This document shows positions 1,509 through 49,014 of a DNA stretch of 56,302 bases, piece after piece. The notes beneath the pieces were generated by a model, which was not told where the DNA came from, made no database searches, and was given only the letters and a program-made list of their open reading frames with translations. Each line of letters starts with the position of its first letter. Within the stretch, counting starts at the first letter, position 1. A program made the position numbers and the translations under genes. The DNA is from Parcubacteria group bacterium Athens0714_12 (GTDB lineage Bacteria; Patescibacteriota; Patescibacteriia; UBA2591; VMGY01): assembly GCA_007378955.1 (NCBI GenBank), contig VMGY01000005.1:1-56302 (forward strand), in the 5' to 3' direction.

Positions 1509-2192
1509 ATGAAAAAACCAATCTTTGCAAAAGACCAAATTTACCATATCTATAATAGAGGAGTGGAAAAAAGAAATATCTTTTTGGATAGTCAGGATTA
1601 TTTTCGTTTTATTCATAATCTTTTTGAATTTAACGATGAAAATCATTCTTTTAATTTCAACCATTATTTCAACTCTCAAACTATGGAGGTTGAACCTCAA
1701 TATTTGAAAAAACAAAAAAAACCACGGGAACTCTTAGTAGAAATTCTGATTTTTACTCTAATGCCAAACCATTTTCATCTACTTGTAAGACAAAAAAGAG
1801 AAAATGGTATCGTAAAATTTATGCAAAAGTTAGGAACTGGCTATGCTATGTATTTCAATCAAAAACACAATAGAGTTGGCGGGTTATTTCAGGGAAGGTT
1901 TAAAGCTGTAATTATAAAAGAAGATGCGCACTTCGCTCATCTTCCCTATTATATTCATGCAAATCCTTTAAAATTAATAATGCCTGATTGGAAAACAGAA
2001 GGCGTTAAAGACTATAAAAAAGCGATAAAATTTTTAGAAAATTATCGCTGGTCAAGTTTTTTAGATTATACCGGCAAAAAAAATTTTCCTTCAGTAACTC
2101 AAAGAGAGTTTTTTCTTGATATTTTTGAAGGATGTGAAAACTACAAAGAACAAACAAAAAAATGGCTGAAAGAAATGAGCCTGAAAAAATAA
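1509..2192 (+). CDS. IS200/IS605-like Y1 HUH transposase; a REP-associated tyrosine transposase (RAYT)
   Basis: HUH motif LMPNHFHLLV. Catalytic Tyr region GTGYAMYFNQKHNRVGGLFQGRFKA, typical of Transposase_17. It is flanked by inverted REP palindromes. A REP-like half site (ctatggaggttgaacctcaata, 1681-1702) lies inside its own coding sequence. Confidence 0.8.
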   Translation: MKKPIFAKDQIYHIYNRGVEKRNIFLDSQDYFRFIHNLFEFNDENHSFNFNHYFNSQTMEVEPQYLKKQKKPRELLVEILIFTLMPNHFHLLVRQKRENGIVKFMQKLGTGYAMYFNQKHNRVGGLFQGRFKAVIIKEDAHFAHLPYYIHANPLKLIMPDWKTEGVKDYKKAIKFLENYRWSSFLDYTGKKNFPSVTQREFFLDIFEGCENYKEQTKKWLKEMSLKK

Positions 2193-2257: not shown

Positions 2258-5056
2258 TTATTCTTCCCAAATTTTCTCAAAAAATCCCAAAGGAATTAGT
2301 TTGATATTTTGATGGACTGGCTGGCCTTCAGCCACAAAAAATTCTTCAGATTTATAAATTTTATATCCTTTTGCTTTTGCTTCTAAATAATATTTGCCTT
2401 GTGGCGTTAAAAAAGAATATTGGCCTGTTTTATCCGTGATTTGCGGATTTTTTTGGTCATATTTTCCCGCTTGCCAAATTTCAAATTTTTCTGTTTGCGG
2501 ATTGAAAAAATAAATAGTGATTTCAGCCTGCGGAATCCTGGTTTCTTTATCTTTGACTTCCTCGCTAAAAACATATCCTTCCGGGTCAATTAAAATTTCT
2601 GTTTCTATTATTTTATCCTCGCCGTCCGCGTAATTAATCACTGTGGCAAGGGAAAATTGACCGGCAACGGGCGGCAATTGGATTTCCGCCTCATAAATTC
2701 CGTCTTTATCGGGGTCGCTGTAAATAAATTCGCCAATCAGCCATTCTTTCGCCTGCGCGGCGTCAAAAACCGCGTCAAAAATACCGGCTACTTCTTGGGC
2801 TTGCGCGAAGGGAATACTAAGTGTCATTGCGAGGAGCGAACGCAGGGATTTGCTTACATTGTCATTGCGAGGAGCGACTGAAGCGAAGCGGAAAGAGCGA
2901 CGAAGCAATCCCGTTGTCTGTTGCATTCCCATCGGGATTGCCGCGCTCAACTGCCTGCTGGCAGCCTCGCTCGCAATGACGTTATTATTAGCCCGCGCCG
3001 ACAAAGATTTAATAAAAATCAACTTTCCCTTAATCTCTTTTGCCGGTTTTATTGGTTTAATAAAAGACTTAAAATTACTGCCGGCTATTAAAACTGCTTG
3101 CTCTTTTCCCGCGCTCTTTATTTTAATATTGCCAAAAGACGAAACAAACAGCGGTTTTTCCTCTAAAATTTGTTCTGGCGCCAAAGACGACTCCTTAACA
3201 ATAATCGGCGGTTCTATTGGCTGAACTTCTGTCGGCGGACTTGGCGGCTGTTTTTTCTCGCGCGTCTTTACCTCGGGTTTCAAAACTAAAAATATTTTCT
3301 TGCCTGTCTTATTTAAAGCAATAGCCGTATTTTTAACTGCCGTGGCAATGCCGCGGACAATCTTTAAAGAAAAACTCTGAATATTTTGGCCGGTTCCTTT
3401 AATTATTCTAAAACTGGATTGAAAAATTCCGCGGACAATAATCACTCCGGATTTTCCCAAATCTTTGCCCGCTTCTTTAATTTCCAGAAATGGATTTTTA
3501 ATTACATCTTCAAAATCAGAGAAAGCCAATTCTTTGATTTCCTGATAACTATCTTTCAAATTCTGCCCAATCGCCTGCCAATTTTTTTTAATCTCTTGCC
3601 TAATAGAAATCTTTTCTTTGATTGGCGATTCCATTATTGGCTTTTCAATAATTGGCAATCCTTCTTTAGAAATAATTTCTTCAATCGGAGTGATTTTTTC
3701 CGGAATAATTTCTCCCGGGGGTTCTTTTGGAATAATCTTTTCCCATTCTTTAACCGGCCGCTCAATTTCTTCCCATTTTATTGGCAAAACCGCGGGAATC
3801 TCCGGCGTTGTTGTTATCTCTTTCTCTATTATTTCAAAATAAATAATTTCTTCGGGGCTGAAATTTCCCGCCGCGTCTTGAGATTTAATAATTAATTTAT
3901 GTTTGCCCAATTTTAACGGGGTAATAATTTTATATGACCACTTGCCTTGTAAATCCGTCAGTGTCTGATAAAAAACGAAATCATCAAGACTGATAAAAAT
4001 CTTACTGTCGGGTTCAGCCGTCCCGGAAATAATCGGCGTCTTTTCTAAAATTTGCTCGCCATCGGCGGGATAAACAATAATCAAACCATCCGGCGACAAA
4101 GTGTCTAAAATAATAGAATCTGAAATCACTTGCGAGGCAACGCCGCCCGGACTTCTGAATTTGGCGTAGACATTTTTCACGCCGTCGCCTATCTCCAAAT
4201 ACCAAATTCTATTCTCTTGATAATTTTCCCAGCTAATTCCCTCAAAACTTTCTTTATTGGAAACAGCCATTTGGCTGGCGTTTTCAGCCGACAAACTTAA
4301 AACAACTCTTCTGGAATAAGTATATAACGCGCCTTTATCAATCAGTAAAGAAGCTGGTTTCCGCTCTGTCGCCTGCTCCCCGGAAACCACTTGCGGCGGT
4401 GGCGGCAGGCCAGGTCCGCCACCTGCCGTCATACAAGCAGACGTATTAAAAGTACAATTAGAACTGCATCCTAATGTCCCAGCGGTAAAACCCCGGCTTA
4501 AACAAGTTGCTCCACCCAATAAAGAGCCGTCGCACTGCTCCCCTGTTTCTAAAAGTCCGTTGCCGCAAGTCAAAGTAACCCAATTTGTTTTTACTTTATA
4601 ATCCACGTCAACGCAAGAGCCGGTTTTAAGACAATTAAAAACAATCCAGCCGATGTTTTCACCCCAAGCGTATCCGTTAAAATTTCCCACTGAATCAATG
4701 GTTACGCCGCCGTAAGTTGGATTAAAATTTATCCAACCCGTATTCTCGCCCCAACCGTAGCCAGTCAAATTCCCGTTAACATCATTACTCACTCCGCCGT
4801 AGACAGGGCTTAAATCAATCCAGCCGGCATTTTCAGCCCAAACATAACCGGAAAGGCCGGTATCTGTTACTTGCACATTGCCTTCTGAACTGCCAAAATT
4901 AAGCCAGCCGATATTTTCACCCCAAGCGTATTTATAATTCGCGTCAATAGTTCCCGTAGTTTCCGCCGCAAACGCAAAATTAACAGTTATCAACTGCCCT
5001 ATTAAAGCAAAAAGTAATATGATAGTAATAAATTTATTTCGCCTCATTAATTTCAT
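2258..5056 (-). CDS. Large secreted or surface repeat protein. It has a signal peptide, four GYAWGENIGWINF-type repeats, a Myxococcus-type cysteine-rich repeat, a poly-Pro stretch, an Ig-like region, a PE-rich linker and a C-terminal prealbumin/CarboxypepD_reg-like domain.
   Basis: N-terminus MKLMRRNKFITIILLFALIGQLITVNFAFA (signal peptide). Repeats (GY[AV]W[GA]EN[IAT]GW[IL][NDV][FL]) occur four times. CGNGLLETGEQCDG...C matches the TIGR02232-like cysteine repeat. PGLPPPPQ follows. A MITE-like element (2825-2985) is carried in-frame. Confidence 0.6.
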   Translation of the reverse strand: MKLMRRNKFITIILLFALIGQLITVNFAFAAETTGTIDANYKYAWGENIGWLNFGSSEGNVQVTDTGLSGYVWAENAGWIDLSPVYGGVSNDVNGNLTGYGWGENTGWINFNPTYGGVTIDSVGNFNGYAWGENIGWIVFNCLKTGSCVDVDYKVKTNWVTLTCGNGLLETGEQCDGSLLGGATCLSRGFTAGTLGCSSNCTFNTSACMTAGGGPGLPPPPQVVSGEQATERKPASLLIDKGALYTYSRRVVLSLSAENASQMAVSNKESFEGISWENYQENRIWYLEIGDGVKNVYAKFRSPGGVASQVISDSIILDTLSPDGLIIVYPADGEQILEKTPIISGTAEPDSKIFISLDDFVFYQTLTDLQGKWSYKIITPLKLGKHKLIIKSQDAAGNFSPEEIIYFEIIEKEITTTPEIPAVLPIKWEEIERPVKEWEKIIPKEPPGEIIPEKITPIEEIISKEGLPIIEKPIMESPIKEKISIRQEIKKNWQAIGQNLKDSYQEIKELAFSDFEDVIKNPFLEIKEAGKDLGKSGVIIVRGIFQSSFRIIKGTGQNIQSFSLKIVRGIATAVKNTAIALNKTGKKIFLVLKPEVKTREKKQPPSPPTEVQPIEPPIIVKESSLAPEQILEEKPLFVSSFGNIKIKSAGKEQAVLIAGSNFKSFIKPIKPAKEIKGKLIFIKSLSARANNNVIASEAASRQLSAAIPMGMQQTTGLLRRSFRFASVAPRNDNVSKSLRSLLAMTLSIPFAQAQEVAGIFDAVFDAAQAKEWLIGEFIYSDPDKDGIYEAEIQLPPVAGQFSLATVINYADGEDKIIETEILIDPEGYVFSEEVKDKETRIPQAEITIYFFNPQTEKFEIWQAGKYDQKNPQITDKTGQYSFLTPQGKYYLEAKAKGYKIYKSEEFFVAEGQPVHQNIKLIPLGFFEKIWEE
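2825..2985. repeat. MITE-like palindromic element, family 1 (gtcattgcgagg...cctcgcaatgac), copy A, inside the surface-protein CDS
   Basis: One partial and one full unit: gtcattgcgaggagcga... then gtcattgcgaggagcgactgaagcgaagc...gcaatcccg...gggattgc...cctcgctcgcaatgac. The host ORF stays open across it. Confidence 0.7.
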
Positions 5057-5105: not shown

Positions 5106-5789
5106 CTATTTCGCCTGTATAATAATCTTGTTCGCGATAGAAAAAATTTCTTTTTTAAAAAATTTTTTAACCTCCCGCCAGCCGGCTTTAAAATAAATTT
5201 CCGGCTCTGGATCGTCTTCGGCGTCTTCAAAATACGCCAAACTCTTTAAGATATGATGAAAATTATGAGCGACAGAGGGATATTGAGCGGGCAGTCTTTT
5301 GATTATATTCTCCAGAGATTCAATGTTTTTCGCGCACCAATACGCGTCAAAAAAATCTCTTTTTTTGCCTCGCTGGGATATGGCAATAATCTTCATCACG
5401 GCAATGTCAATCGGTTGAAGTATTTTGATTGAGCCATACCGAATAAATTCTTGTTTGGGAATAAAAAAGGGATAAGCGATAAAACTTGCCTTCGCGCCGA
5501 ATAATTCGCCATATATGGTATTATCTTCTTCAAAATTAATCTTCCAATTATCATTGCCAATGAAATGAGTTATAATCGCGCTTGATTTAAAATTAGCATT
5601 TTGATTAAAAAAATCTAAATCAACCGATTTGCGACAACCTGTTTGCAACGTTAATGCCGTGCCGCCGGCTAAATACCATTTAGATTTTAAAAGCCACTTT
5701 TGTTCAGACAAAAAAACAAACGCCTTTTTTGTTTCAGACGGCAAAATTTTTGAATTGATATCTATTTGTTTTTTAAAAGCAGTGTCCAC
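5106..5789 (-). CDS. Nucleotidyltransferase of the AbiEii/AbiGii (DUF1814) toxin family
   Basis: WYLAGGTALTLQTGCRKSVDLDFF matches the AbiEii NTase core (GG[TS]AL...R.S.D[IL]DF). Size is 227 aa. It overlaps the small upstream ORF by 28 bp. Confidence 0.6.
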   Translation of the reverse strand: MDTAFKKQIDINSKILPSETKKAFVFLSEQKWLLKSKWYLAGGTALTLQTGCRKSVDLDFFNQNANFKSSAIITHFIGNDNWKINFEEDNTIYGELFGAKASFIAYPFFIPKQEFIRYGSIKILQPIDIAVMKIIAISQRGKKRDFFDAYWCAKNIESLENIIKRLPAQYPSVAHNFHHILKSLAYFEDAEDDPEPEIYFKAGWREVKKFFKKEIFSIANKIIIQAK

Positions 5790-5989
5790 AAATTTTTAGT
5801 TCTAGGCCTTAATGACCTTGATTTTGCTACGACTTTTTTGAGTAGCGGCTTATCATAAAAATCATAAAGCCACTTAACTTCTTTGTCATTGCCAAAATCC
5901 AAAATACGCTCAATAACATATTGGGCATTTTTTTTCGCGTCTATTTTGCGCGGATTGACATCCCAGAATAATACTTGTCTAAATTTCAT
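5762..5989 (-). CDS. Small conserved partner protein upstream of the AbiEii-family NTase; putative antitoxin-like
   Basis: 75 aa (MKFRQVLFWDVNPRKID...YVIERILDFGNDKEVKWLYDFY). It is translationally coupled with and overlaps the NTase gene. The function is inferred from this arrangement only. Confidence 0.4.
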   Translation of the reverse strand: MKFRQVLFWDVNPRKIDAKKNAQYVIERILDFGNDKEVKWLYDFYDKPLLKKVVAKSRSLRPRTKNLWTLLLKNK

Positions 5990-6302
5990 ATGCTTATTTT
6001 ATCAAAATTTACCGCGACTTGCAATTTTTCAAATTGGTATATTATACATTGATAACATATAATATTTAACAAATATTTCAAAATATCCGTCTATGTAATT
6101 ATTATACTTTATCTTGCCCATTTTTGCCAACCGCCGATCATTCTGCCAATTTCGGCCATTTCTTTTTGGGCTATCGTAAATGCTGATTATACTGATTTTA
6201 TTATCAGTGATATCACGGATTAAACCTGCCTATGTTATAATAAAATATAATCGTTTTTCATTTCCTCTATGAATAATTATACCACAAAATCCGATATACC
6301 GC

Positions 6303-6340
6303 ATTACGAGAGAGAGAGAGAGAGAGAGAGAGTAAAACAC
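6303..6340. repeat. (GA)12.5 microsatellite inside a ~37-bp inverted repeat; left boundary of the DGR cassette
   Basis: cattacGAGAG...GAGtaaaac. It is the reverse complement of 9590-9630 (caatacGAG..GAGagtaaat). Both runs are exactly 25 nt. Confidence 0.8.
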
Positions 6341-7202
6341 ACGCTACCAATTTTTTCAACTTTCAAAATCTCCTCAAAGCGTATTATCAATGCCGAAAAC
6401 GGAAAAGAAAAACTGCCAATGCCGCTAAATTTGAATTAAATTTTGAAAAAGAACTTCTAAAACTGGAATGGGAACTGAAAAATCATACTTATCAGCCCGG
6501 CAGGTCAATCTGCTTTATTGTAACTGATCCCAAACCGCGCGAGGTTTTTGCCGCTGACTTCCGGGACAGGATTATCCACCATCTTTTAATAAATTTTTTG
6601 GAACCGATTTGGGAACCAAAATTTATCCATCATTCTTACTCCTGCCGCAAAAACAAATTCTGCAGCACATTAACAAGGGAATAAATTTCATCGGCTATAT
6701 TATCAAACCGCATTACACTCTTGTCAGAAGGCGGATTGTCAAAAATCTGAAAAGAAAATTATGGCAATTCAATCTTTCCTTGCGTTATTGCATTTTTCCC
6801 TGTCATTGCGAGCGAAGCGAAGCAATCCCGAGGCAAGACGCGACAAACCAACGGGATTGCCACAGTCGGTCGCCTGCTGGCGACCTCCTTCACAATGACA
6901 CTTCTAAGTTGTCATTGCGAGGAGCGACTGGAAGGAGCGACGAAGCAATCCCGTTCGCTAATCCTCGGGATTGCTTCGTCGCCTCTGCTGAGGCTCCTCG
7001 CAATGACAGCGATGAACAATTAAAACAAATCCTCTCTGTTATCAACTCTTATTACGGACAATTTAAGCATAGCAATACTTTTAATTTACGAAAACATCTT
7101 TATCAAAAACATTTTGGGATTTTAAAAAACTATCTTGAGCCGGCTGACCCCGTTAGATATGACTATTTCAAAATCAAAAATTTTAAAAAAATAAAAATCT
7201 AA
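6335..7202 (+). pseudogene. Remnant of a diversity-generating-retroelement reverse transcriptase. The N-terminus is cut by (GA)n, the catalytic domains 3-6 are deleted, there is a frameshift, and two MITE units are inserted.
   Basis: Frame 1 (6361-6681) reads NLLKAYYQCRKRKRKT...YQPGRSICFIVTDPKPREVFAADFRDRIIHHLLINFLEPIWEPKFIHHSYSCRKNK, which are RT domains 1-2 of DGR type. A stop follows. Frame 0 (6609-7202) reads GINFIGYIIKPHYTLVRRRIVKNLKRKL (thumb region) and ...SYYGQFKHSNTFNLRKHL (RT C-terminus). There is no YxDD region and no start codon. Confidence 0.75.
6801..7006. repeat. MITE-like element, family 1: two tandem units (6801-6900 and 6911-7006) inserted in the RT remnant
   Basis: Unit 2 is almost a perfect nested palindrome: gtcattgcgaggagc / gcgacgaagcaatcccg ... 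cgggattgcttcgtcgc / gctcctcgcaatgac. Confidence 0.75.
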
Positions 7203-7289
7203 CGGGGCTGATGAAAATTTCAGTCATTTTAAGAAACACGATATCCGCGATTCAAAAAAACTCAATGAAGCCAAAAGTTTTTTATGATT

Positions 7290-7436
7290 ATTGCCAAGAG
7301 AGCTAACGAACGCAACGCGAGTCATAAGTATTAGTCTTAAGATTGTTGTTCGTGTTGCCGTTGTTCAAGTTCACGTTCCACGCGTTGTGGGTATTGTTAG
7401 ATTTAGTAGTGGCTGACCAAAAGTTGTTACCGGCGT
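7290..7436 (-). repeat. DGR template repeat (TR); its sense is on the minus strand
   Basis: It is 147 bp with no indels relative to VR 8067-8213. Its AAC and AAT codons on the minus strand correspond to varied VR codons. The IMH*-like end is attgccaagagagctaacg. Confidence 0.8.
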
Positions 7437-7603
7437 AAATTTTTTTCCGCTATTTTTCCTTAACTGAATCAATCTTTGCCAAAGCAAAGTATAATTCAAT
7501 TGATACTTTATCCCGCAGTACTACGGGAAGCGGAATCGCAATAATTCTCAAACCCGCTTTTTGTTTGTCCTGCAGACGCGGGACTAAAACAAAAATTCTG
7601 GCT

Positions 7604-7969
7604 TCATTGAATTTTCCTTTTCAAATTATCAAAAAACCATTTTTCCCAACCAAATACCTGTTTAGAAATTTCCTCTAAAAAACGGCTTAAAAATTCTAAT
7701 TTTTTAACATTAATTACTTTCAAATCATAAGCCACTCTTAAATGAATTTTTAATCGTTCAATCCTCGCATTTATTTCCGAAAAATAAATCCCTTTATCTT
7801 CCTTGGAATTAGTTACAACAATCCAATCCAAAAGTTCGCCAACTATTTCTTTTAATTTTTGACCCAATGAATATTTATATTCTCTGGGAAAATTATGTGT
7901 CGTGCGATAAATTTCAAGATTTAAATCATATCCCTTTTGAAAAATTGGCAGATGAATATAACGCGACAT
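7604..7969 (-). CDS. avd: Four-helix-bundle protein (TIGR02436, the '23S rRNA IVS protein' family); Avd-like DGR accessory variability determinant
   Basis: LPIFQKGYDLNLEIYRTTHNFPREYKYSLGQKLKEIVGELL...RIERLKIHLRVAYDL fits the four-helix-bundle family. It lies between VR and TR, as in canonical DGRs. Confidence 0.65.
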   Translation of the reverse strand: MSRYIHLPIFQKGYDLNLEIYRTTHNFPREYKYSLGQKLKEIVGELLDWIVVTNSKEDKGIYFSEINARIERLKIHLRVAYDLKVINVKKLEFLSRFLEEISKQVFGWEKWFFDNLKRKIQ

Positions 7970-8066
7970 ATTCCTCCTTAAATATATACGCTAATAATGC
8001 CGAATCGATGTTTTATTAGTTTTATAAAAAAATAATTAAATTAAAAAAATCATAAAATTATAAAAT

Positions 8067-8213
8067 ATTGCCAAGGGGGCTAACGAACGCAACGCGAGTC
8101 ATAAGTATTAGTCTTAAGATTGGCGTTCGTGTAGCCGTGGTACAAGTACACGTCCCACGCGTTGTGGGTACCGTTAGATTTAGTAGTAGCCGACCAAAAG
8201 GAGTTACCGGCGT
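8067..8213 (-). repeat. DGR variable repeat (VR), covering the last 44 codons of the target gene plus 13 bp past its stop codon (the IMH-like end)
   Basis: It differs from TR at 12 TR-adenine positions: AAC>GCC, TAC x3, CAC, GAC, TCC; AAT>GGT; TCA>TCG. There is 1 silent non-A change and 2 changes in the GC-richer IMH end (ggggg versus gagag). Confidence 0.8.
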
Positions 8214-9540
8214 GGGGTATAACGGTTGAGGAGCTCCATGACCCGTCAATATACGCTTGCATCAATTCTTTTTGGTGGGGTAAACGCCAATTGCCATCTC
8301 CTAAGGCCTTACAACCGGTAATGTTCGGGGTGCTGGTTGCTGTAACACATCGGCAGGCATCATTACCGTCAGCAGTGCAGGTTCCTGGGTTTGCCCAACT
8401 TTCCGGCGCCCAGCAATTATTCGCCCACCACCAATTATGATCAGTTCCACTGTCTAAATAATCAGACCAAATTTGTCCTGTATTATTGTCTTGATAGCAA
8501 ACATCGCCCGCGCAAGCCGTAGAATCTCCTGTTTTGCAATAATTATTAGCCGCAGCGCATTGGGTCCAAGAAGCGGCAAAACTATCAGTCGGTCTTGCCC
8601 CGGCATCATTATAATCATCTACTCCGCCTAAGGCTTGAGTATAAAAAGCAAAATCTTCCACCGGACTGGTCGCCGAGCCATTTTTTATATTCACCACTGA
8701 AAACATATTTCTGTTATTCAAATATTCCAGCCGTTCTAAAATATTTCCGTCTATATTGGCGGAGATGGTGGTTGAACTATATCCGGACTTAGCGAGCGCG
8801 TCTAAATATTCGGCTCTGGTATAAGTCCAAGTGGTGGAGCTCGCCAAGGCGGTGGAAGCCGGCGCCGCATAATCATAGAGCGTTTTCTGCCAGCCGAAAA
8901 TATTAGCGGTGCTGGTGGCTGATGTGGAAGTGCCGATCGCGTCGTGCGTATACGCCTGCCCGGCGAATAAACTTGTTGAAGTGGCAGGGGTGGAAGTGTT
9001 CCAGCCGATTAAATAAGCGATACTGCCCCAAGCCCGAGTAGTTGAAGCGGTGGAGCTGGAAACAAGATATTTGAGGTCGGAATTGAGAAAATTTAAGTAT
9101 TCCGCTCGGCTGTTAGTCCATAAAGCAGTGGTTAACGCAGTGGAAGCCGGCGCGGTATAATCATAAAGAGTTTTCTGCCAGCCAAAAAGAGTTAAGGTGC
9201 TGGTGGCAACAGTGGAAGTGGCGATGGTGTCGCTAATCGCTTCCAAGCTGTCTGTGGTTCTGCTAAAAGTGTTATTGCTGTCTTTTGAAGCCATATCCAA
9301 TAAGGAATGCATGGTGGCGGCCGGGCTTGCCGAAGGCGTTAAACTGCCGGCGTAAGCGATCACCGTAATCACCAACACGGAAATAACCACAATCAACCCG
9401 TCAACAGCCAATTTATGGAGGTTCAACCTCCATATTGAGGTTGAACCTCCATATTCTTGTCCTTTTATCCTCTTGGATAATTTTTTTAGATAATCCTTTT
9501 TGTTTATTTGTTTCATAATTTTTCTCCAATAAAAAAACAC
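8080..9540 (-). CDS. DGR target (variable) protein. It has an N-terminal TM or signal segment, tandem ~85-aa Thr/Ser-rich repeats and a C-terminal DUF1566/C-type-lectin-like ligand-binding domain that holds the VR.
   Basis: C-terminus ...GDGNWRLPHQKELMQAYIDGS...FWSATTKSNGTHNAWDVYLYHGYTNANLKTNTYDSRCVR* (the DUF1566 hallmark ends in RCVR). The exact start is uncertain because a REP doublet (9412-9452) lies in-frame near the annotated N-terminus. Confidence 0.7.
   Translation of the reverse strand: MFFYWRKIMKQINKKDYLKKLSKRIKGQEYGGSTSIWRLNLHKLAVDGLIVVISVLVITVIAYAGSLTPSASPAATMHSLLDMASKDSNNTFSRTTDSLEAISDTIATSTVATSTLTLFGWQKTLYDYTAPASTALTTALWTNSRAEYLNFLNSDLKYLVSSSTASTTRAWGSIAYLIGWNTSTPATSTSLFAGQAYTHDAIGTSTSATSTANIFGWQKTLYDYAAPASTALASSTTWTYTRAEYLDALAKSGYSSTTISANIDGNILERLEYLNNRNMFSVVNIKNGSATSPVEDFAFYTQALGGVDDYNDAGARPTDSFAASWTQCAAANNYCKTGDSTACAGDVCYQDNNTGQIWSDYLDSGTDHNWWWANNCWAPESWANPGTCTADGNDACRCVTATSTPNITGCKALGDGNWRLPHQKELMQAYIDGSWSSSTVIPHAGNSFWSATTKSNGTHNAWDVYLYHGYTNANLKTNTYDSRCVR
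9412..9452. repeat. REP doublet: tatggaggttcaacctccata + ttg + aggttgaacctccatat (inverted pair)
   Basis: It has the same palindrome core as the RAYT-flanking REPs. It is translated in-frame (YGGSTSIWRLNLH) in the 5' extension of the DGR target ORF. Confidence 0.7.
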
Positions 9541-9589: not shown

Positions 9590-9630
9590 GAAATTTACTC
9601 TCTCTCTCTCTCTCTCTCTCTCGTATTGGT
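9590..9630. repeat. (CT)12.5 microsatellite inside a ~37-bp inverted repeat; right boundary of the DGR cassette
   Basis: Reverse complement of 6303-6340. Confidence 0.8.
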
Positions 9631-9687: not shown

Positions 9688-10092
9688 TTAACGAACAGTT
9701 GAGATAAATTCTTCAACATCTTTTAACCTATTTTGTAAAACATCATAGACAATATCATAATCTATTTTTTCGTAATCGTGAGCCATCACATTTCTAAAAC
9801 CTGTCATTCTCGCCATTTTTTCCGTCAATTCATTAGAAATCATTTTTTGTTCGTTTAAGATATAGAAACTTTCACTCATCGTGGATGGTTTGCGAAAATT
9901 TTTAGCGGAAACAATCGCCTCCGCCAAATCTATTACTGATTGGACGAGTAAATATAAGTATCTTTCCACCGCTCCTCTAATATTTATATCCCGCTCTATT
10001 TCTTTTCTTGAATAATTTTTATAATTCTCTAAAATTTTCAGGTATTTTTTAACAGCGCTGATTTTATTTTCAATGGCGGACAATTTTGTCAT
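9688..10092 (-). CDS. hepT: HepT-family toxin (HEPN domain; DUF86)
   Basis: R-x4-HxY HEPN motif FRNVMAHDY; 134 aa. It overlaps the upstream MNT gene in an ATGA overlap. Confidence 0.7.
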   Translation of the reverse strand: MTKLSAIENKISAVKKYLKILENYKNYSRKEIERDINIRGAVERYLYLLVQSVIDLAEAIVSAKNFRKPSTMSESFYILNEQKMISNELTEKMARMTGFRNVMAHDYEKIDYDIVYDVLQNRLKDVEEFISTVR

Positions 10093-10095
10093 ATT

Positions 10096-10500
10096 TTACG
10101 CTTTAGTTAAATTATGCCGCAAAAGCAAACTATGGAAATCAAAATATTCATTTAAAATTTTTGGCTCAATTAAAACCTTATACGGCTCCCGCTCAAAAAT
10201 TAATTTTCCTTCTTTAATTATATTGTATTTCAATTCAGGCCCTTCGGCAACATTCAAAACAACTAAATCCACTTTATCTGTCTTAAGCGTTCGGGATATT
10301 TTATCCATTAACTCGCACCTAAGATCAAAAATCTTTTTTTTATTTTTTTCGGCGAAATAAACGGCGAAATCGTAATCGCTCATTGGACCTTTTTTATTTT
10401 CCGCCGTTGAACCGAATAAATAAACCAAACCCACTTTTTTTAAAGAGCGAAAAACAGGAGATAAAATTTGAGAGATTTCTTTAATGCTTAAATCTTTCAT
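10096..10500 (-). CDS. mnt: MNT-family minimal nucleotidyltransferase antitoxin
   Basis: GS-x9-13-DxD motif LFGSTAENKKGPMSDYDFAV; 134 aa; it sits upstream of hepT. Confidence 0.7.
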   Translation of the reverse strand: MKDLSIKEISQILSPVFRSLKKVGLVYLFGSTAENKKGPMSDYDFAVYFAEKNKKKIFDLRCELMDKISRTLKTDKVDLVVLNVAEGPELKYNIIKEGKLIFEREPYKVLIEPKILNEYFDFHSLLLRHNLTKA

Positions 10501-10529
10501 TGCAAATTTTGAAAAAATGCCGAAAAAAT

Positions 10530-10546
10530 GTCAAGGTTGAACCTTG
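10530..10546. repeat. REP-related palindrome variant tcaaggttgaaccttga
   Basis: It has the same ggttgaacc core as the REPs but different outer arms. It lies between mnt and rplU. Confidence 0.5.
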
Positions 10547-10564
10547 ATATTTTCACCGAGTTGG

Positions 10565-10876: not shown

Positions 10877-10928
10877 ATTTTTTAATTAATCTATTCAAAA
10901 ATTTAGTTTTTATGTTATTTTTTATATT

Positions 10929-12011: not shown

Positions 12012-12186
12012 ATATTGAGATGGTTACAAAACTCATTTCTGCTGCAATTTTATCTTTTCAGCTGCGACTTCGTCAGCCAGCGTAAAAAGATTTTCACCGT
12101 AGCTTTGCTACGTACCATCTCATTATACTTTAAAGAGGCTAAAACCTCTACTCCCATTTGTCATTCTCTTTTAGGGATTAAAGATT

Positions 12187-12570
12187 TTAGTCTCTTTCTA
12201 AATAACTCTCTAAAATAATCATTGCCGCTTTTTCATCTCTATTCTTGGCTGACAACTTATCCGCCATTTTGCTGGTTAATCTTTCATCTTCTTCAATAAT
12301 CGGTATCTCAAAATTTTCTTTTAATAATCCAGTAAATTCTCTCACTTCTTGAGTCTGGACAGTTTCTTGTGAATTTAAACTTAAAGGCAAGCCGATAATA
12401 ATTTTTTCAACCTTTTCTTTTTGGCAAATTTTTTTTAGATTTTTCAAAAAAAACTTATCATTAACTAAAGTAAGGTAAGGAAAAACTATTTTTTGTCTTT
12501 GGTCGGTAATCGCCAACCCGATTCTTTTTTCGCCGTAATCAATGGCTATAATTTTGGACATAAATATCAA
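12187..12570 (-). CDS. ruvX: RuvX/YqgF Holliday-junction-resolvase-like putative pre-16S rRNA nuclease
   Basis: IIAIDYGEKRIGLAITD (RNase H-like YqgF start) ...IIIGLPLSLNSQE. Confidence 0.7.
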   Translation of the reverse strand: MIFMSKIIAIDYGEKRIGLAITDQRQKIVFPYLTLVNDKFFLKNLKKICQKEKVEKIIIGLPLSLNSQETVQTQEVREFTGLLKENFEIPIIEEDERLTSKMADKLSAKNRDEKAAMIILESYLERD

Positions 12571-12744
12571 ACAAATTACAAATTCTAATGACCAAAATTT
12601 AAAACAAAATATTAAATGGTTTGGAGTTTATAATTTGGTCCTGAATTAAGTTCAGGATTGAATTTGTTTGTAACTTGGTGCTTGTAGTTTGTGATTTATT
12701 TTGTCAATATCTCGCATCCATTCTTAGTCACCGCGACCGTATGC

Positions 12745-13452: not shown

Positions 13453-13598
13453 ACGGGATTGCCGCGTCGCCCCGACTCGCGTCGAGACTCCTCGCAATGA
13501 CAGGGTAAAAGAGTGTCATTGCGAGGAGGCAGCAGGAAGATCCTTTCGCTTCACTCAGGACAGGCTCCGCAATCCCGTGGTTCCCCGCAATGATATTA
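13453..13598. repeat. MITE-like element, family 1, copy C (a half unit plus a full unit), intergenic between map and adk
   Basis: gggattgc...cctcgcaatgac, then gtcattgcgaggaggcagc...ccgcaatcccgtgg...ccccgcaatgat. Confidence 0.65.
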
Positions 13599-18296: not shown

Positions 18297-18416
18297 ATTA
18301 TTTTATATTAATTACTTTGAATTACGAAATAGGCTGAGTAGGAGGCGCGCTCATATCTTTTTTGCAGACGCCCGTCATTAGTCCAAAGGCTAAAAAAGAT
18401 AGGAGCGCGCCCTGAA
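18297..18416. repeat. MITE-like element, family 2, in the S8/S14 spacer
   Basis: TIRs ttgaattacgaaat / atttcgtaattcaa; core hairpin ggaggcgcgctcatatcttttttgcagacgcccgtcattagtccaaaggctaaaaaagataggagcgcgccc. Confidence 0.75.
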
Positions 18417-18452
18417 TAATGAATTTCGTAATTCAAGCTAATTATGAAATTT

Positions 18453-23270: not shown

Positions 23271-23281
23271 AATTAATTTCT

Positions 23282-23401
23282 TTGAATTACGAAATAGGTT
23301 GAGTAGGGGGCGCGCTCATATCTTTTTTGCAGACGCCCGTCATTAGTCCAAAGGCTAAAAAAGATATGAGCGCACCCTGAATAATGAATTTCGTAATTCA
23401 A
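23282..23401. repeat. MITE-like element, family 2, in the L2/L23 spacer
   Basis: About 95% identical to 18297-18416, with the same TIRs and core hairpin. Confidence 0.75.
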
Positions 23402-23402
23402 G

Positions 23403-23810
23403 CTAATTTTTAAATATCTCTATTTTATCTTCTTTCTTTAAAGTAATAATTGCTTTTTTTAAATTTTTAGTTTTTCCCTGGACTTTGCCGTATCTTGTAT
23501 TTTTGCCCCTTGTCTTGATTATATTCATCTTGATCGGGCTAACATTATAAAGCCCTTCAATGGCTTTTTTAATTTCAATCTTATTCGCGTCTTTTGAAAC
23601 TTCAAAAACATATTTATTCTTTGCCGCTAAATCAGTTGTTTTTTCCGTAATCAAGGGTTTTATTAAAATTTTGGAAATTAACCCTTGATCTTTTTTAAAT
23701 ATTTTATTTTTATCTCGCGCAATCTTAACATTAGAAGGTTCTTTTTTGATTTCTTTTTTTACCTCTTTTTTTTCTGTTTCTTTCTTTTGTTTAAATCCAA
23801 ATAAAGCCAT
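23403..23810 (-). CDS. rplW: 50S ribosomal protein L23 with an N-terminal Lys-rich extension
   Basis: ...ILIKPLITEKTTDLAAKNKYVFEVSKDANKIEIKKAIEGLYNV... Confidence 0.85.
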   Translation of the reverse strand: MALFGFKQKKETEKKEVKKEIKKEPSNVKIARDKNKIFKKDQGLISKILIKPLITEKTTDLAAKNKYVFEVSKDANKIEIKKAIEGLYNVSPIKMNIIKTRGKNTRYGKVQGKTKNLKKAIITLKKEDKIEIFKN

Positions 23811-29488: not shown

Positions 29489-29590
29489 AATAGTGTCATT
29501 GCGAGGAGCGACTGGAAGGAGCGACGCGGCAATCCCGTGGGATTAACACGGGATCCTTCGGTCGTCCGCCAGCTGGCAGACTCCTTCAGG
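29489..29590. repeat. MITE-like element, family 1, copy D, in the fusA/rpsG spacer
   Basis: gtcattgcgaggagcgactggaaggagcgacgcggcaatcccgtgggatt...cttcaggatgac. The left arm is identical to the unit at 6911. Confidence 0.65.
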
Positions 29591-29605
29591 ATGACAGCCT
29601 TACTG

Positions 29606-34602: not shown

Positions 34603-37600
34603 TTAAATATCTAAATTTTTGACACTCTTGGCGTGCGTTTGGATGAATTTTTTTCTTGGCCCGACTTCCGAACCCATCAAGATTTCAAAGATTTCATCCG
34701 CTTTTTCAGCATCTTCAATGCCTACTTGCCTCATTGTTCTTGTTTCCGGATTCATGGTAGTCTCCCAAAGCTGGTCTGGGTTCATTTCTCCCAATCCTTT
34801 ATATCTTTGGATATTTGGCTGATCTTTCGTTTCTTTTAATATTTCGTCCTTCTCTTCATCCGAGTAAGCGTATTTTGATTTTTTATTTATTTGTATCTTG
34901 TAAAGAGGCGGCCGGGCGATATAAAGATAGCCATTTTTTATAATATCCGGAAAATATCTATAAAAAAGTGTTAAAAGCAAGGTTCTGATATGGGCGCCGT
35001 CAACATCAGCATCTGTCATTATAACAATCCGCTGATAACGCAATCCGCTGATATCAAATTGTTCGCCGATATTAGTGCCTAAAGCGACAATGAGCGCTTT
35101 TATTTCATTATTAGCCAGCATTTTATCCAGCCGCGCCTTTTCCACGTTTAAAATTTTTCCTCTTAAAGGAAGAATTGCTTGATTCCTTCTATCCCTTCCC
35201 TGTTTGCAACTATTATGAACAAAAACTCCCGAAGCTAACGCAAAATTGTGGGTATTCTCAACTTCTAAATCATAAACGTCTATTTTTTTATTTATTATTT
35301 CTAATTTTTTAATTTTGTGATTATAATTAAAAACTGCTTCTTTTAATTCTTTCTCATTGCCATTAAAGAAACGTTGACAAATTGTTTCATACCTTAAAAG
35401 ACTCTTGTCATTTTTTTGCAATCTTTCTTTTTGATATTTTTCCTTATTAAGTTCTCCATATTTTTCAAAAATCTCTTTCATTAATTTAAAAGATTTCTCT
35501 TGATAAGTCTGATTATAGGTTTCTCTTCTCTTGGCTCTAAATTTTGAAGTCCACTGCTCTTTCGTTTTTTGCCTCCGCCATCTTAAAAGCTCTTCATTCT
35601 GCCATTGCCTCTTTGCTTCTTCGGAAAGTTCCTTCTTTTTTTCAGGATGTTTGCAAAAATATTCCTTCACCCTTTCAGCTTGTTTTATTCTATTATTAGA
35701 ATTACTCCAATATCTTTTTTGACTTTCAAATAAAAGTTCATTGTTTTTTTCTTGATATTGCGGATTTTTTTTATAAAATTCAAGGGATTTTTGAATCATA
35801 TATTGCTTATACTCTTTATTCTCCCATTGTTTTTTTGCTCTCTCGCTCAACATCCTTCTCATTTTAGGAGTAGTCATAAATCTTCTTATCTTCTCCCTGT
35901 ATTCTTGCGATTGACGCGTCTTCCTGGATTTTTCCTTAACATCTTCCCGATGAAGACCAAATTTAATCATTTGACGATGGTATTCCCAATGATCTTCTTT
36001 TGGCATTCGCTTTATATTCTCTGGATTATTATTCAATTTATTAAAATCAATATGGTGTTTATCTGAATCGTTTATCTCTGAATAAATCCCGTTTTTGAGA
36101 TTATAATCATCAGCCAAAAGATGGGTGAAAATCCATTTTCTTTTTTCTGGATCAAAAATCATTTCATATCCTTCTATGGTAATCCTTCCTTCTTTTTTAG
36201 AATATTTTTTTCGCAAAGGCATTAAGGAATCTTTTACGGTTAAATCTTTCGCCATTTTATATGTCCCGTCTCTTAACATAAATTTGTGGTCTAAGGTACA
36301 TATTATTTCCTTATTATTATCAAGCGCCACTTTAATAACTTCAGTATCAATCTTTGTTCTCCTCGGATTCTCAATTAATCCGATTCCAATAGTTCCGTCA
36401 TTTCTGATTGTATAACAATAATTCTTTTTTCCTTCACCATATTCCTGAACTAATTGCTTAAAGGATAAATTTCGCCCGTCAGTTAAAGCTACTTCGGTAT
36501 CTTCTCCAAAACAGCCGCCGGCGCTGTCGCCTTCAACGATAAATAACTCGCTTTCCTCGGGACTTTTGGAACTGCAATCTGATAATTTGCCCGGCAAAGT
36601 CAAACCGTCCAAAACTCCTTTTCTTAAAACGGTTTCTCTGGCGGCTCTGGCCGCCTGCCTCGCCCGGGAAGCTAAAATCGCCTTGCCGATAATCGCCTCC
36701 CCTGTTTTCGGATTTTCTTCTAAAAAATTAGAAAAATATTCATTAAATAAAGTGTCAACTATTTGCCTGACTTCTGGATTGCCTAATTTAGTTTTTGTCT
36801 GGCCTTCAAATTGAGGGTCGCTTGCTTTAACGCTGATTACCGCGGTTAACCCCTCTCTGATGTCATCACCGCTCAAATTTTCGTCTTTTTCTTTTAAATA
36901 ACTTTTTTGGCGAGCATAACTGTTCAGCGCTCTTGTTAAAGCGGTCCTAAAACCGACTAAATGGGAGCCTCCTTCGTGCGTATTAATATTATTGGCGAAA
37001 CTGAAAACAGTTTCTTTGTATTCATTGGTATATTGCAAAGCAATTTCTACTTTTACGCCATTAAGTTCTCTTTCCAAATAAAAAATGTCTTCGTGCTTCG
37101 CCGAATTAGTTCTGTTTAAGTGGCGGACATAAGAGCTGATTCCGCCTTCAAAATAAAATTGATAAATATAATTGGATTCTTGGCGATTATCAATGATTGT
37201 AAATTTAACTCCTTTTGTCAAATATGCTTGTTGCCTCAAATGATTTATAACCAAATCCCAATTATACTCTATTTTAGGAAAAATTTCCGGGTCGGGCTGA
37301 AAAATAATTGTTGTTCCCCTTTCTTTTGTTTTGCCTATTGCTTTCACCTTTTTTAATGGGTCGCCCTGGCGATACTCCTGCGCATAAATATCGCCGTCTC
37401 TTTTTACTTCCGCTCTTAGATAAATAGATAAAGCGTTAACCACGCTCACGCCCACGCCATGCAAACCGCCGGAAACTTTATAAGCCTGATTTTCAAATTT
37501 GCCGCCAGCATGCAGTTTGGTTAATACCACTTCTAAAGCCGATTTGCCTGTTGGCTTATGGATATCAACCGGAATTCCTCTGCCATTATCAGAAACTCTG

Positions 37601-37872
37601 ACTATATTTTTCGGCAAAAGTTCAATCACGACTTCATTGCAAAAACCGGCCAACGCCTCATCAACCGCATTATCCAAACATTCCCAAATCAAATGATGCA
37701 ATCCTTGGCTGCCTGTATTGCCGATATACATCGCCGGCCTTTTTCTGACTGGCGCCAAACCTTCTAAAACAGTGATATGCTTCGCTTTATAATCATCAGA
37801 TGTTTTGCTCATTTTTTCTTTTAAGGTAGATTCATCTTCGCCTGAATTAGAATTTTTTATTTTATTTGCCAT
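34603..37872 (-). CDS. gyrB: DNA gyrase subunit B interrupted by a 434-aa intein
   Basis: GHKL ATPase N-terminus ([15 protein letters not shown]). Toprim EGDSAGG | intein | [24 protein letters not shown]. Without the intein the protein would be ~655 aa. Confidence 0.9.
   Translation of the reverse strand: [1089 protein letters not shown]
35212..36513 (-). mobile_element. Intein within gyrB (HINT domain with splicing blocks A, B, F and G; no LAGLIDADG or HNH endonuclease module)
   Basis: It begins [13 protein letters not shown] (Cys1), has block B ...CTLDHKF, and ends ...[22 protein letters not shown] followed by Ser+1. The ~300-aa central insert is a Lys/Glu/Gln-rich repeat ([12 protein letters not shown] / [12 protein letters not shown] / [12 protein letters not shown]). 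Confidence 0.8.
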
Positions 37873-48793: not shown

Positions 48794-48930
48794 ATAACGG
48801 CTTGAAAATTGTTGATAAAAACGCCTTGCTGATAAACGGCTTGGAAATAAAAAAATGTTTAAGCTATTATTTTAACGAAAATATAATAAATGAGATTTAT
48901 AGTGGTTGCATTTTAAATCCACCTTTTGTC

Positions 48931-49014
48931 ATTTTAAGCCAGTAGGCGAAGAATCCCGTAGGGAATCAGTAAAAAAAGTGGGATTCTTCGGACTATCGTC
49001 CTCAGAATGACACC
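48931..49014. repeat. Degenerate MITE-like element, family 1, copy E
   Basis: gtcatt...gcgaagaatcccgtagggaat...gggattcttcg...cctcagaatgac. Confidence 0.5.

Follow-up and report, generated by a model that had tools for sequence, protein, structure and literature searches.

A probable tagged REP-type repeat carried in frame within a surface-protein gene of a Patescibacteria genome

A dispersed family of tagged palindromes

We analysed a 56,302-nt stretch of the genome of Parcubacteria group bacterium Athens0714_12, a member of the Patescibacteria or candidate phyla radiation (CPR) (assembly GCA_007378955.1, contig VMGY01000005.1; the whole stretch is called the window here), and in it a palindromic element that recurs at several loci and at one of them lies inside the gene of a secreted surface protein. 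The element is built of units that each begin with a four-nucleotide tag, YGTC, and we have good confidence that it is a tagged repetitive extragenic palindromic (REP)-type repeat carried in frame. The host gene and the copies, lettered along the window, are the following.

2258–5056, minus strand: host gene, secreted repeat protein of 932 aa, with a GWxNF N-terminal repeat region, Big_13 and a C-terminal CarboxypepD_reg
2822–2859: copy A, truncated extra unit abutting the full pair, with one TGTC head and about 34 nt; encodes ...NVSKSLRSLLAMT in the gene frame
2860–2981: copy A, full inverted pair with tags outward, heads TGTCATTGCGAGG (plus strand, 2860) and CGTCATTGCGAGC (minus strand, 2981); fold −34.7 kcal/mol, z −4.9
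6801–6900: copy B1, heterodimer inside the open reading frame (ORF) 6609–7202; fold z −3.9
6910–7008: copy B2, near-perfect inverted pair inside ORF 6609–7202; fold z −11.6
13453–13502 and 13514–13594: copy C, pair with tags inward, the latter part with a nested ATCCT-type fragment, in the adk-map spacer; fold z −4.95
29494–29596: copy D, heterodimer of an ATTGC/GCAAT unit and an ATCCT/AGGAT unit, in the rpsG-fusA spacer
48927–49012: copy E, degenerate, AT-richer pair with ATTCT/AGAAT basal stems, intergenic, beside a tatD-like gene

A sequence-only reading of the window had proposed a dispersed palindromic family, and the counts bear this out. The 12-mer GTCATTGCGAGG, with at most one mismatch, occurs nine times in the window against 0.09 expected, and the head pattern YGTCATNNNGA 12 times against 1.18 expected; none of 100 shuffles reached either count. 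All 12 heads, 11 with the tag TGTC and one with CGTC, sit in five loci that the earlier reading had already listed. Its loci therefore stand, as do the outer and inner arms it quoted, which are exact for copy B2, its reference copy; its exact ends were off by a few bases and have been corrected by direct reading. The copies have a G+C content of 57–67% (43% in the degenerate copy E) in a window of 35.8%. Folded as single strands and compared with dinucleotide shuffles, whole inverted pairs score z = −2.6 to −11.6, with none of 200 shuffles as good. The tags point outward in A, B1, B2, D and E and inward in C. A shared flank, TTTTACCC, noticed at three units, showed no enrichment in the window, and 39 pairs of outward-facing units with gene-sized intervals between them were listed.

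Organization of the repeat unit

The building block is a unit of about 30–50 nt and not the 100-bp palindrome. Each unit is laid out as a YGTC tag, a basal stem starting with AT, an interior and a CCA or CCC tail. The short unit of copy B1 is the canonical example, TGTC-ATTGC-GAGCGAAGCGAA-GCAAT-CCC, and its partner is a long unit bearing the apical hairpin GTCGCC-AGCA-GGCGAC. Three basal stems are seen in the window, ATTGC/GCAAT, ATCCT/AGGAT (at 29596) and ATTCT/AGAAT (at 49012), and both sides of the stem change together.

We compared these units with 250 distinct full pairs drawn from public collections by their outer 11-mers alone, the inner motif being left unselected; these scans selected for dimers, and the count of tag orientations is unbiased in the window only. 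The tag is TGTC in the window and CGTC in most other phyla, with C preceding GTCAT in about 60% of the 250 copies, and the tail consensus is GCAAT-CCC in the window and GCAAT-CCA elsewhere. The inner motif GCAATC/GATTGC was recovered in 229 and 216 of the 250 copies, respectively, with offsets from the ends of 20 or 26 nt. By length, the arm interiors form three classes, 7, 9 and 15 nt (GAG-GNA-CGAA, GAGC-GNA-GCGAA and GAGGAGC-GNA-GCGACGAA), which differ by symmetric additions around a GNA triloop in which any base can take the middle position (A 50, C 38, T 14, G 9); other interiors have a short apical hairpin instead of the triloop. Symmetry of this kind is what one would expect if each unit formed a local hairpin closed by a GNA triloop and containing tandem G.A pairs, and the oligonucleotide d(GCGAAGC) is a very stable DNA mini-hairpin. 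If the tandem G.A pairs and the GNA loop are counted, the short unit would comprise about nine stacked pairs, for which energy models give weak support. In those unit folds that form, the tag is unpaired, and two inverted units also fold together as one long hairpin.

That the single unit, and not the pair, is conserved follows from copies B2 and D, which share one arm only: their left units are 96% identical, and neither the loops nor the right units are related. Past the third pair inward of the tails, complementarity in the centre of a pair is as low as 29–47%, and no two copies have the same centre. The arm-length combinations (15,9), (9,9) and (9,15) occur 27, 26 and 22 times, and heterodimers, with arms of different length, are as common as homodimers.

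These properties bear on the term 'MITE-like' that the palindromes had been given. A classical miniature inverted-repeat transposable element (MITE) would be a deletion derivative of an insertion sequence (IS) with a DDE transposase, copied whole via its terminal inverted repeats. The size of 80–120 bp, the TG...CA termini perfectly inverted over 11–16 nt and the dispersal of the copies are all as expected of such an element, and bacterial MITEs (Correia/NEMIS, RUP, ERIC, Nezha) are likewise small, with inverted termini and occasional in-frame fusions. However, direct duplications of 2–9 bp at the ends are at chance level in the 250 copies and absent from the window, copies with one arm in common (96% identical) have loops and partner arms that are not related, and half copies and tags-inward pairs occur. 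The absence of duplications, the modular units, which assort independently, and the unrelated centres argue against an element copied whole. Nor was a parent IS found: no gene family recurs within 1 kb of the 240 loci sampled beyond the window, where the clusters of ORFs comprise phage or gene transfer agent-like genes (in the viral sample) and spurious high-GC ORFs, and the published repeat class to which we assign the element below has no parent IS according to the available text of PMC3733652. We therefore regard a MITE origin as very improbable.

The insertion in the surface-protein gene

Copy A had been described as lying in frame inside a single gene, and this is what we find: 2258–5056 is open on the minus strand for 932 aa and contains the peptide that had been quoted, with the full pair encoding ...VIASEAASRQLSAAIPMGMQQTTGLLRRSFRFASVAPRND... 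in the frame of the gene. The element makes up residues about 689–747. The alternative that two genes are separated at the element can be set aside, since homologues of 750–860 aa span the junction; hundreds of these share the same order, from the N-terminal repeat region through Big_13 to CarboxypepD_reg. Homologues lacking the insertion are plentiful. Between the ...IKGxLxF... strand and the ...PF.xA...AQAKxW... segment, 51 of 70 aligned homologues have 15–19 residues, compared with 59 here. In an AlphaFold2 model built from the homologue alignment, the predicted local distance difference test (pLDDT) falls below 50 at residues 687–769, and the flanking strands (636–683 and 772–920) score 77–96. 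Low confidence between confident beta strands places the element, in the model, in a loop or linker ahead of the C-terminal beta domain.

The same site has received other insertions. The closest homologue (73% identical, contig L001) carries a 57-residue insert there that derives from a different tagged unit, whose 8-bp stem, ATGCTGAA, encloses a 5-nt loop; the unit ends in ...GGATGACA, and two 21-nt end repeats come after it. In other lineages (contigs L333 and L334; homologues P0056 and P0073), AT-rich palindromic inserts formed from GAATCATGAATC-like repeats occupy the same loop and encode peptides such as ...ESRIMNQES...IRDSKFMIQ.... Insertions thus land at this site repeatedly, or are at least tolerated there.

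We also considered whether copy A might be an assembly artefact or chimera, or the gene a pseudogene ORF joined by chance. Short-read assemblies do break at the repeat, and two independent Logan assemblies end inside copy D. The copy A region, however, is identical in seven independent contigs (NCBI, ENA, Logan), and the C-terminal domain downstream of it is still in frame, conserved (89% nucleotide identity to L001) and confidently modelled by AlphaFold2, leaving this explanation almost no credence.

Copies B1 and B2 are both read through without a stop in ORF 6609–7202, which was entertained as a second in-frame case and rejected. This ORF preserves only the C-terminal part of a truncated reverse transcriptase of the diversity-generating retroelement (DGR) type, so its open frame is no proof of a functional in-frame insertion.

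Operon spacers and turnover between strains

Copy C takes up the whole adk-map spacer and gives map a spurious 22-codon N-terminal extension; as the earlier reading had suspected, this extension and the CHCEER-type peptides are read-through of the repeat. Copy D takes up the rpsG-fusA spacer, with the rpsG stop 9 nt away and the fusA ATG 5 nt away. The exact sequence of a 690-aa FusA product is absent from the gene collection, so gene callers may have chosen another start. We also observed that 29489–29493, between copy D and the fusA ATG, retains no recognisable Shine-Dalgarno sequence.

Assemblies from other samples are 99.8–100% identical to the window, and copies A, B, D and E are unchanged in all of them. 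Strains that are 99.8–99.9% identical nevertheless differ in the presence of the element at two spacers. The ruvX-map spacer holds a 118-nt pair of this family in GCA_007376655.1 and one ENA contig, and an unrelated AT-rich spacer in the window (12568–12703). Upstream of rplU, TGTCATTGCGAACGAAGTGAAGCAATCCCGCGGCTTTTCGTAATGACA is present in GCA_007376655.1 and the ENA contig and absent from the window (10877–10928) and from another contig.

The position of copies C and D, which exactly fill their spacers 5–9 nt after the upstream stops and fold strongly, raises the possibility of a selected cis-acting RNA element that acts in operon spacers, for instance by stabilising mRNA, marking a site of processing or attenuating translation. 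REPs in Escherichia coli have effects of these types. Against such a role, the same DNA is also found within coding sequence and a pseudogene, its presence varies between strains that are 99.8% identical, and the palindrome has no strand preference. Moreover, the centre of the pair is unconserved, with low complementarity at pairs 4–10 inside the inner motif, and Rfam returned no family at the gathering threshold or at E values up to 10, only chance hairpin matches. Selection as an RNA element is accordingly improbable. Side effects on expression are plausible for a strong hairpin 5–9 nt from stops and 5 nt from the fusA start.

Distribution and relation to described repeats

The family is neither confined to this contig nor special to the CPR. 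Exact scans with GTCATTGCGAG-N50-80-CTCGCAATGAC recovered at least 120 stretches from viral contigs and at least 120 from species-representative genomes, and these at least 240 stretches come from Proteobacteria, Bacteroidota, Chloroflexi, Planctomycetota, Cyanobacteria, Patescibacteria and phage contigs. Hosts include Bradyrhizobium, sphingomonads, Mucilaginibacter, Pedobacter, Flavobacterium, Chloroflexi, Planctomycetota, Microcoleus, Desulfomonilaceae, Gammaproteobacteria, Patescibacteria and Berkelbacteria; a plasmid BLAST returned six records, none annotated. Arm sequences hardly change from Patescibacteria to Bradyrhizobium or in phage contigs, the short unit at 6801–6830 agreeing with the commonest arm elsewhere at 26 of 30 positions. 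One speculative reason for this near-identity across phyla would be a mobilising or recognising factor that many hosts share. Where genome G+C is below 45%, most copies occupy intergenic positions or the ends of genes; of 44, two are located well inside long ORFs. These two are in uvrA and guaA of uncultured Gammaproteobacteria, whose profile matches split exactly at the insert; the inserts read VIASKAKQS...APRNDN and VIARPRSGAAIS...APRNDD. Other CPR contigs carry canonical dimers of the CGTC-1 and CGTC-3 types with a TGTC tag.

Repeats of this kind have been catalogued before, contrary to the view that the element was undescribed. Di Nocera, De Gregorio & Rocco (2013, BMC Genomics 14:522, PMC3733652) defined a CGTC-tagged superfamily of REPs with families CGTC-1 to CGTC-4. 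According to the available text of that paper, the units have a CGTC or often TGTC tag (variant CCTC), a stem starting with AT and a CCA tail; the first A and T pair with AT on the 3′ side, in a stem of 8–9 bp with a loop of 4–5 nt; and the units form tags-outward dimers, many of them heterodimers. The same text reports the class in five phyla, without an associated transposase or parent IS, and as mostly intergenic, with in-frame intragenic copies among which those in uvrA and other repair genes are conspicuous. It places Neisseria dRS3 and Rickettsia conorii RPE-6 in CGTC-1 and RPE-4 in CGTC-4, and notes atypical loops in CGTC-1 of Bradyrhizobium.

In the light of that description, the element shares with the superfamily its YGTC tag, AT-starting stem, CCA or CCC tail, mostly outward pairs, many of them heterodimers, and the lack of a dedicated flanking transposase, along with a mostly intergenic location, some in-frame copies (uvrA included) and occurrence in several phyla. 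It adds a member to a cross-phylum class that was already on record and does not reveal a new type of system. Patescibacteria, Chloroflexi, Planctomycetota and Cyanobacteria carry the element and are not among the five phyla named in the available text, and presence and turnover in the CPR may be the only new part.

Several observations weigh against the identification as a tagged REP-type repeat. Only 5 bp of Watson-Crick pairing make up the basal stem, which surrounds a G.A-rich interior of 7–26 nt with a GNA triloop or apical hairpin, unlike the published stem of 8–9 bp with its loop of 4–5 nt. Nearest-neighbour folds of single units are weak (z −2.4 to +2.1), and the expected basal stem with free tag and tail is adopted in 8 of 13 units and not in 4–5 of the 13. 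The ATTGCGAG type matched none of the CGTC families named in the available text of PMC3733652, and the intragenic table there, as far as it is available, holds no VIASEAKQS or LAMT (ATTGCGAG-type) peptides. No enzyme has been linked to the element. Finally, at both polymorphic sites the strains differ in the whole spacer and not in the element alone; no clean insertion event was seen, and recombination that exchanged alleles may account for the two differences.

The comparison with Rickettsia palindromic elements (RPEs) that had been drawn is apt, since PMC3733652 places RPE-4 and RPE-6 in the CGTC-tagged superfamily. Both lie in frame within functional genes, here the surface protein and elsewhere uvrA and guaA. 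RPE-1, by comparison, is about 150 bp long, with a conserved peptide, and is found in one genus (Ogata et al. 2000, as summarised in the available text of PMC10969869 and PMC3733652). Judged by anatomy, integron attC sites resemble the element, being imperfect palindromes in which two pairs of inverted conserved boxes sit one inside the other around a variable centre, and they function folded as a single strand; unlike them, the element has no RYYYAAC/GTTRRRY core, cassette arrays or nearby integrase. Literature searches with the DNA string or the encoded peptides returned nothing relevant, a protein search with the insert peptide yielded no candidates, and no paper was found linking MITEs with Patescibacteria or REPs and REP-associated tyrosine transposases (RAYTs) with the CPR.

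The resident transposase

A candidate enzyme is encoded next to the host gene.

1509–2192, plus strand: RAYT-like Y1 (HUH) transposase gene, 227 aa, 630 bp from copy A and 66 nt from the surface-protein stop

Its product matches Pfam Y1_Tnp (E = 7e-9) and, below the cut-off, the NCBIfam model 'REP-associated tyrosine transposase', carries the motifs PNHFHLL and YYIHANP, and has more than 7,000 relatives at 60–79% identity across Patescibacteria. This gene invites the view that the element is a REPIN proper (a REP doublet forming a hairpin), that is, the cognate repeat of this RAYT and mobilised by it. The proximity of a Y1_Tnp gene with HUH and Tyr motifs speaks for this, as do the co-occurrence of repeat and RAYT in CPR contigs and the resemblance to REPINs and REPtrons (Bertels & Rainey 2011; Nunvar et al. 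2010), which share with the element paired inverted hairpins, singlet remnants and the lack of target duplications; the GTAG REPs likewise have hairpin units with a conserved 4-nt tag. The tag here, however, is YGTC and not GTAG. The RAYT gene is bracketed by inverted copies of a different palindrome, the GGAGGTTSAACCTCC hairpin (TATGGAGGTTSAACCTCCATAG, at 1475–1502 and 2210–2237), and in 52 related metagenome loci most RAYT genes have lineage-specific palindromes 20–100 nt to either side, with no TGTC/ATTGCGAG units around the gene in any of the 52. Conversely, a tblastn search with the window RAYT found no relative in the 240 loci around copies of our family. The different flanking palindromes and the absence of a RAYT from these loci indicate that the family is not the cognate repeat of this RAYT, and in the published class CGTC repeats have no transposase association (Di Nocera et al., available text of PMC3733652). 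An origin as a REPIN proper is thus unlikely; action of the RAYT on the element in trans is possible.

The RAYT genes themselves showed a feature of some interest. In 16 of 23 CPR loci examined, the coding sequence itself holds a third copy of the flanking palindrome, which keeps the frame (+147 to +211 nt, between the YHIxNRG and HUH motifs). The window has its three copies at about 1482, 1685 (encoding MEVEP) and 2217. Across lineages the internal palindrome co-varies with the flanking ones (GGAGGTTGAACCTCC, GACATCCGATGTC, GGAAGATGATCTTCC, TAGGAGCCTCGCTCCTA and others), and it might be an autoregulatory or cis-acting site; we know of no description of such a RAYT-internal copy. More copies of the RAYT-associated palindrome are found at 9410–9456, 10525–10552 and 12115–12156. 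The window also has a 42-nt segment, with an AGAGG...CCTCT hairpin, that is missing from a 99.8% identical strain, and another strain has an additional 70 nt there.

Proposed explanation and significance

We propose the following account of the element as a tagged REP-type repeat. Its units are non-coding, non-autonomous DNA that is gained, lost or swapped at spacers within the CPR population. A copy that keeps the frame could persist in a gene where the protein tolerates extra residues, because the termini can be read without a stop in two of the three phases (VIA...PRND and SLR...LAMT) and are interrupted only in the ...CAA TGA C phase. Spread would probably act on the folded single-stranded unit via a trans-acting enzyme; the foremost, though unproven, candidate would be one of the HUH/Y1 type, for example the resident RAYT, and homologous recombination of whole spacers between strains may contribute. 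Taken alone, this mobilisation step is tentative and open to considerable doubt. The stronger proposition, that TGTC units are currently mobile in a streamlined CPR lineage and repeatedly remodel both a surface-protein loop and core-operon spacers, is an unlikely one on present evidence.

Were it true, a genome of about 1 Mb with a single RAYT would offer a tractable setting in which to answer the question, left open by the 2013 study, of which factor mobilises CGTC repeats. A repeat class without a known mobilising enzyme is now extended to a minimal-genome phylum, and differences in presence at the level of strains narrow the search for that enzyme. There are practical consequences for CPR genomics as well: the repeats break short-read assemblies, yield false N-terminal extensions and small false ORFs, and add about 40 residues to real proteins.

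Other features of the window

The region at about 6340–9540 is a decayed DGR. It includes a bAvd gene at 7604–7969 on the minus strand (PF22296, E = 7e-16) and a 148-nt repeat pair, 7289–7436 and 8066–8213, that is 90% identical and resembles a template/variable repeat pair; the latter repeat is at the 3′ end of a 486-aa ORF (8080–9540, minus strand) whose called product is recorded with Lcl_C. Of the reverse transcriptase there are left an N-terminal piece and the frameshifted C-terminal ORF 6609–7202, the latter without the catalytic core. The cassette is bracketed by (GA)n at 6302–6336 and (CT)n at 9594–9628, runs of about 27 nt that lie 3.26 kb from each other and, as an inverted pair, are 97% complementary.

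A 144-nt direct repeat, 95% identical (18307–18450 and 23272–23415), lies in the ribosomal-protein cluster, one copy being in the L23-L2 spacer, and has no Rfam match. GyrB (34603–37872, minus strand, 1,089 aa) contains an intein according to a precomputed Pfam Intein_splicing match on the identical contig L335. Pairs in the style of toxin-antitoxin systems, AbiEii with DUF6922 and a nucleotidyltransferase with HepT, are present at 5106–5989 and 9688–10500.

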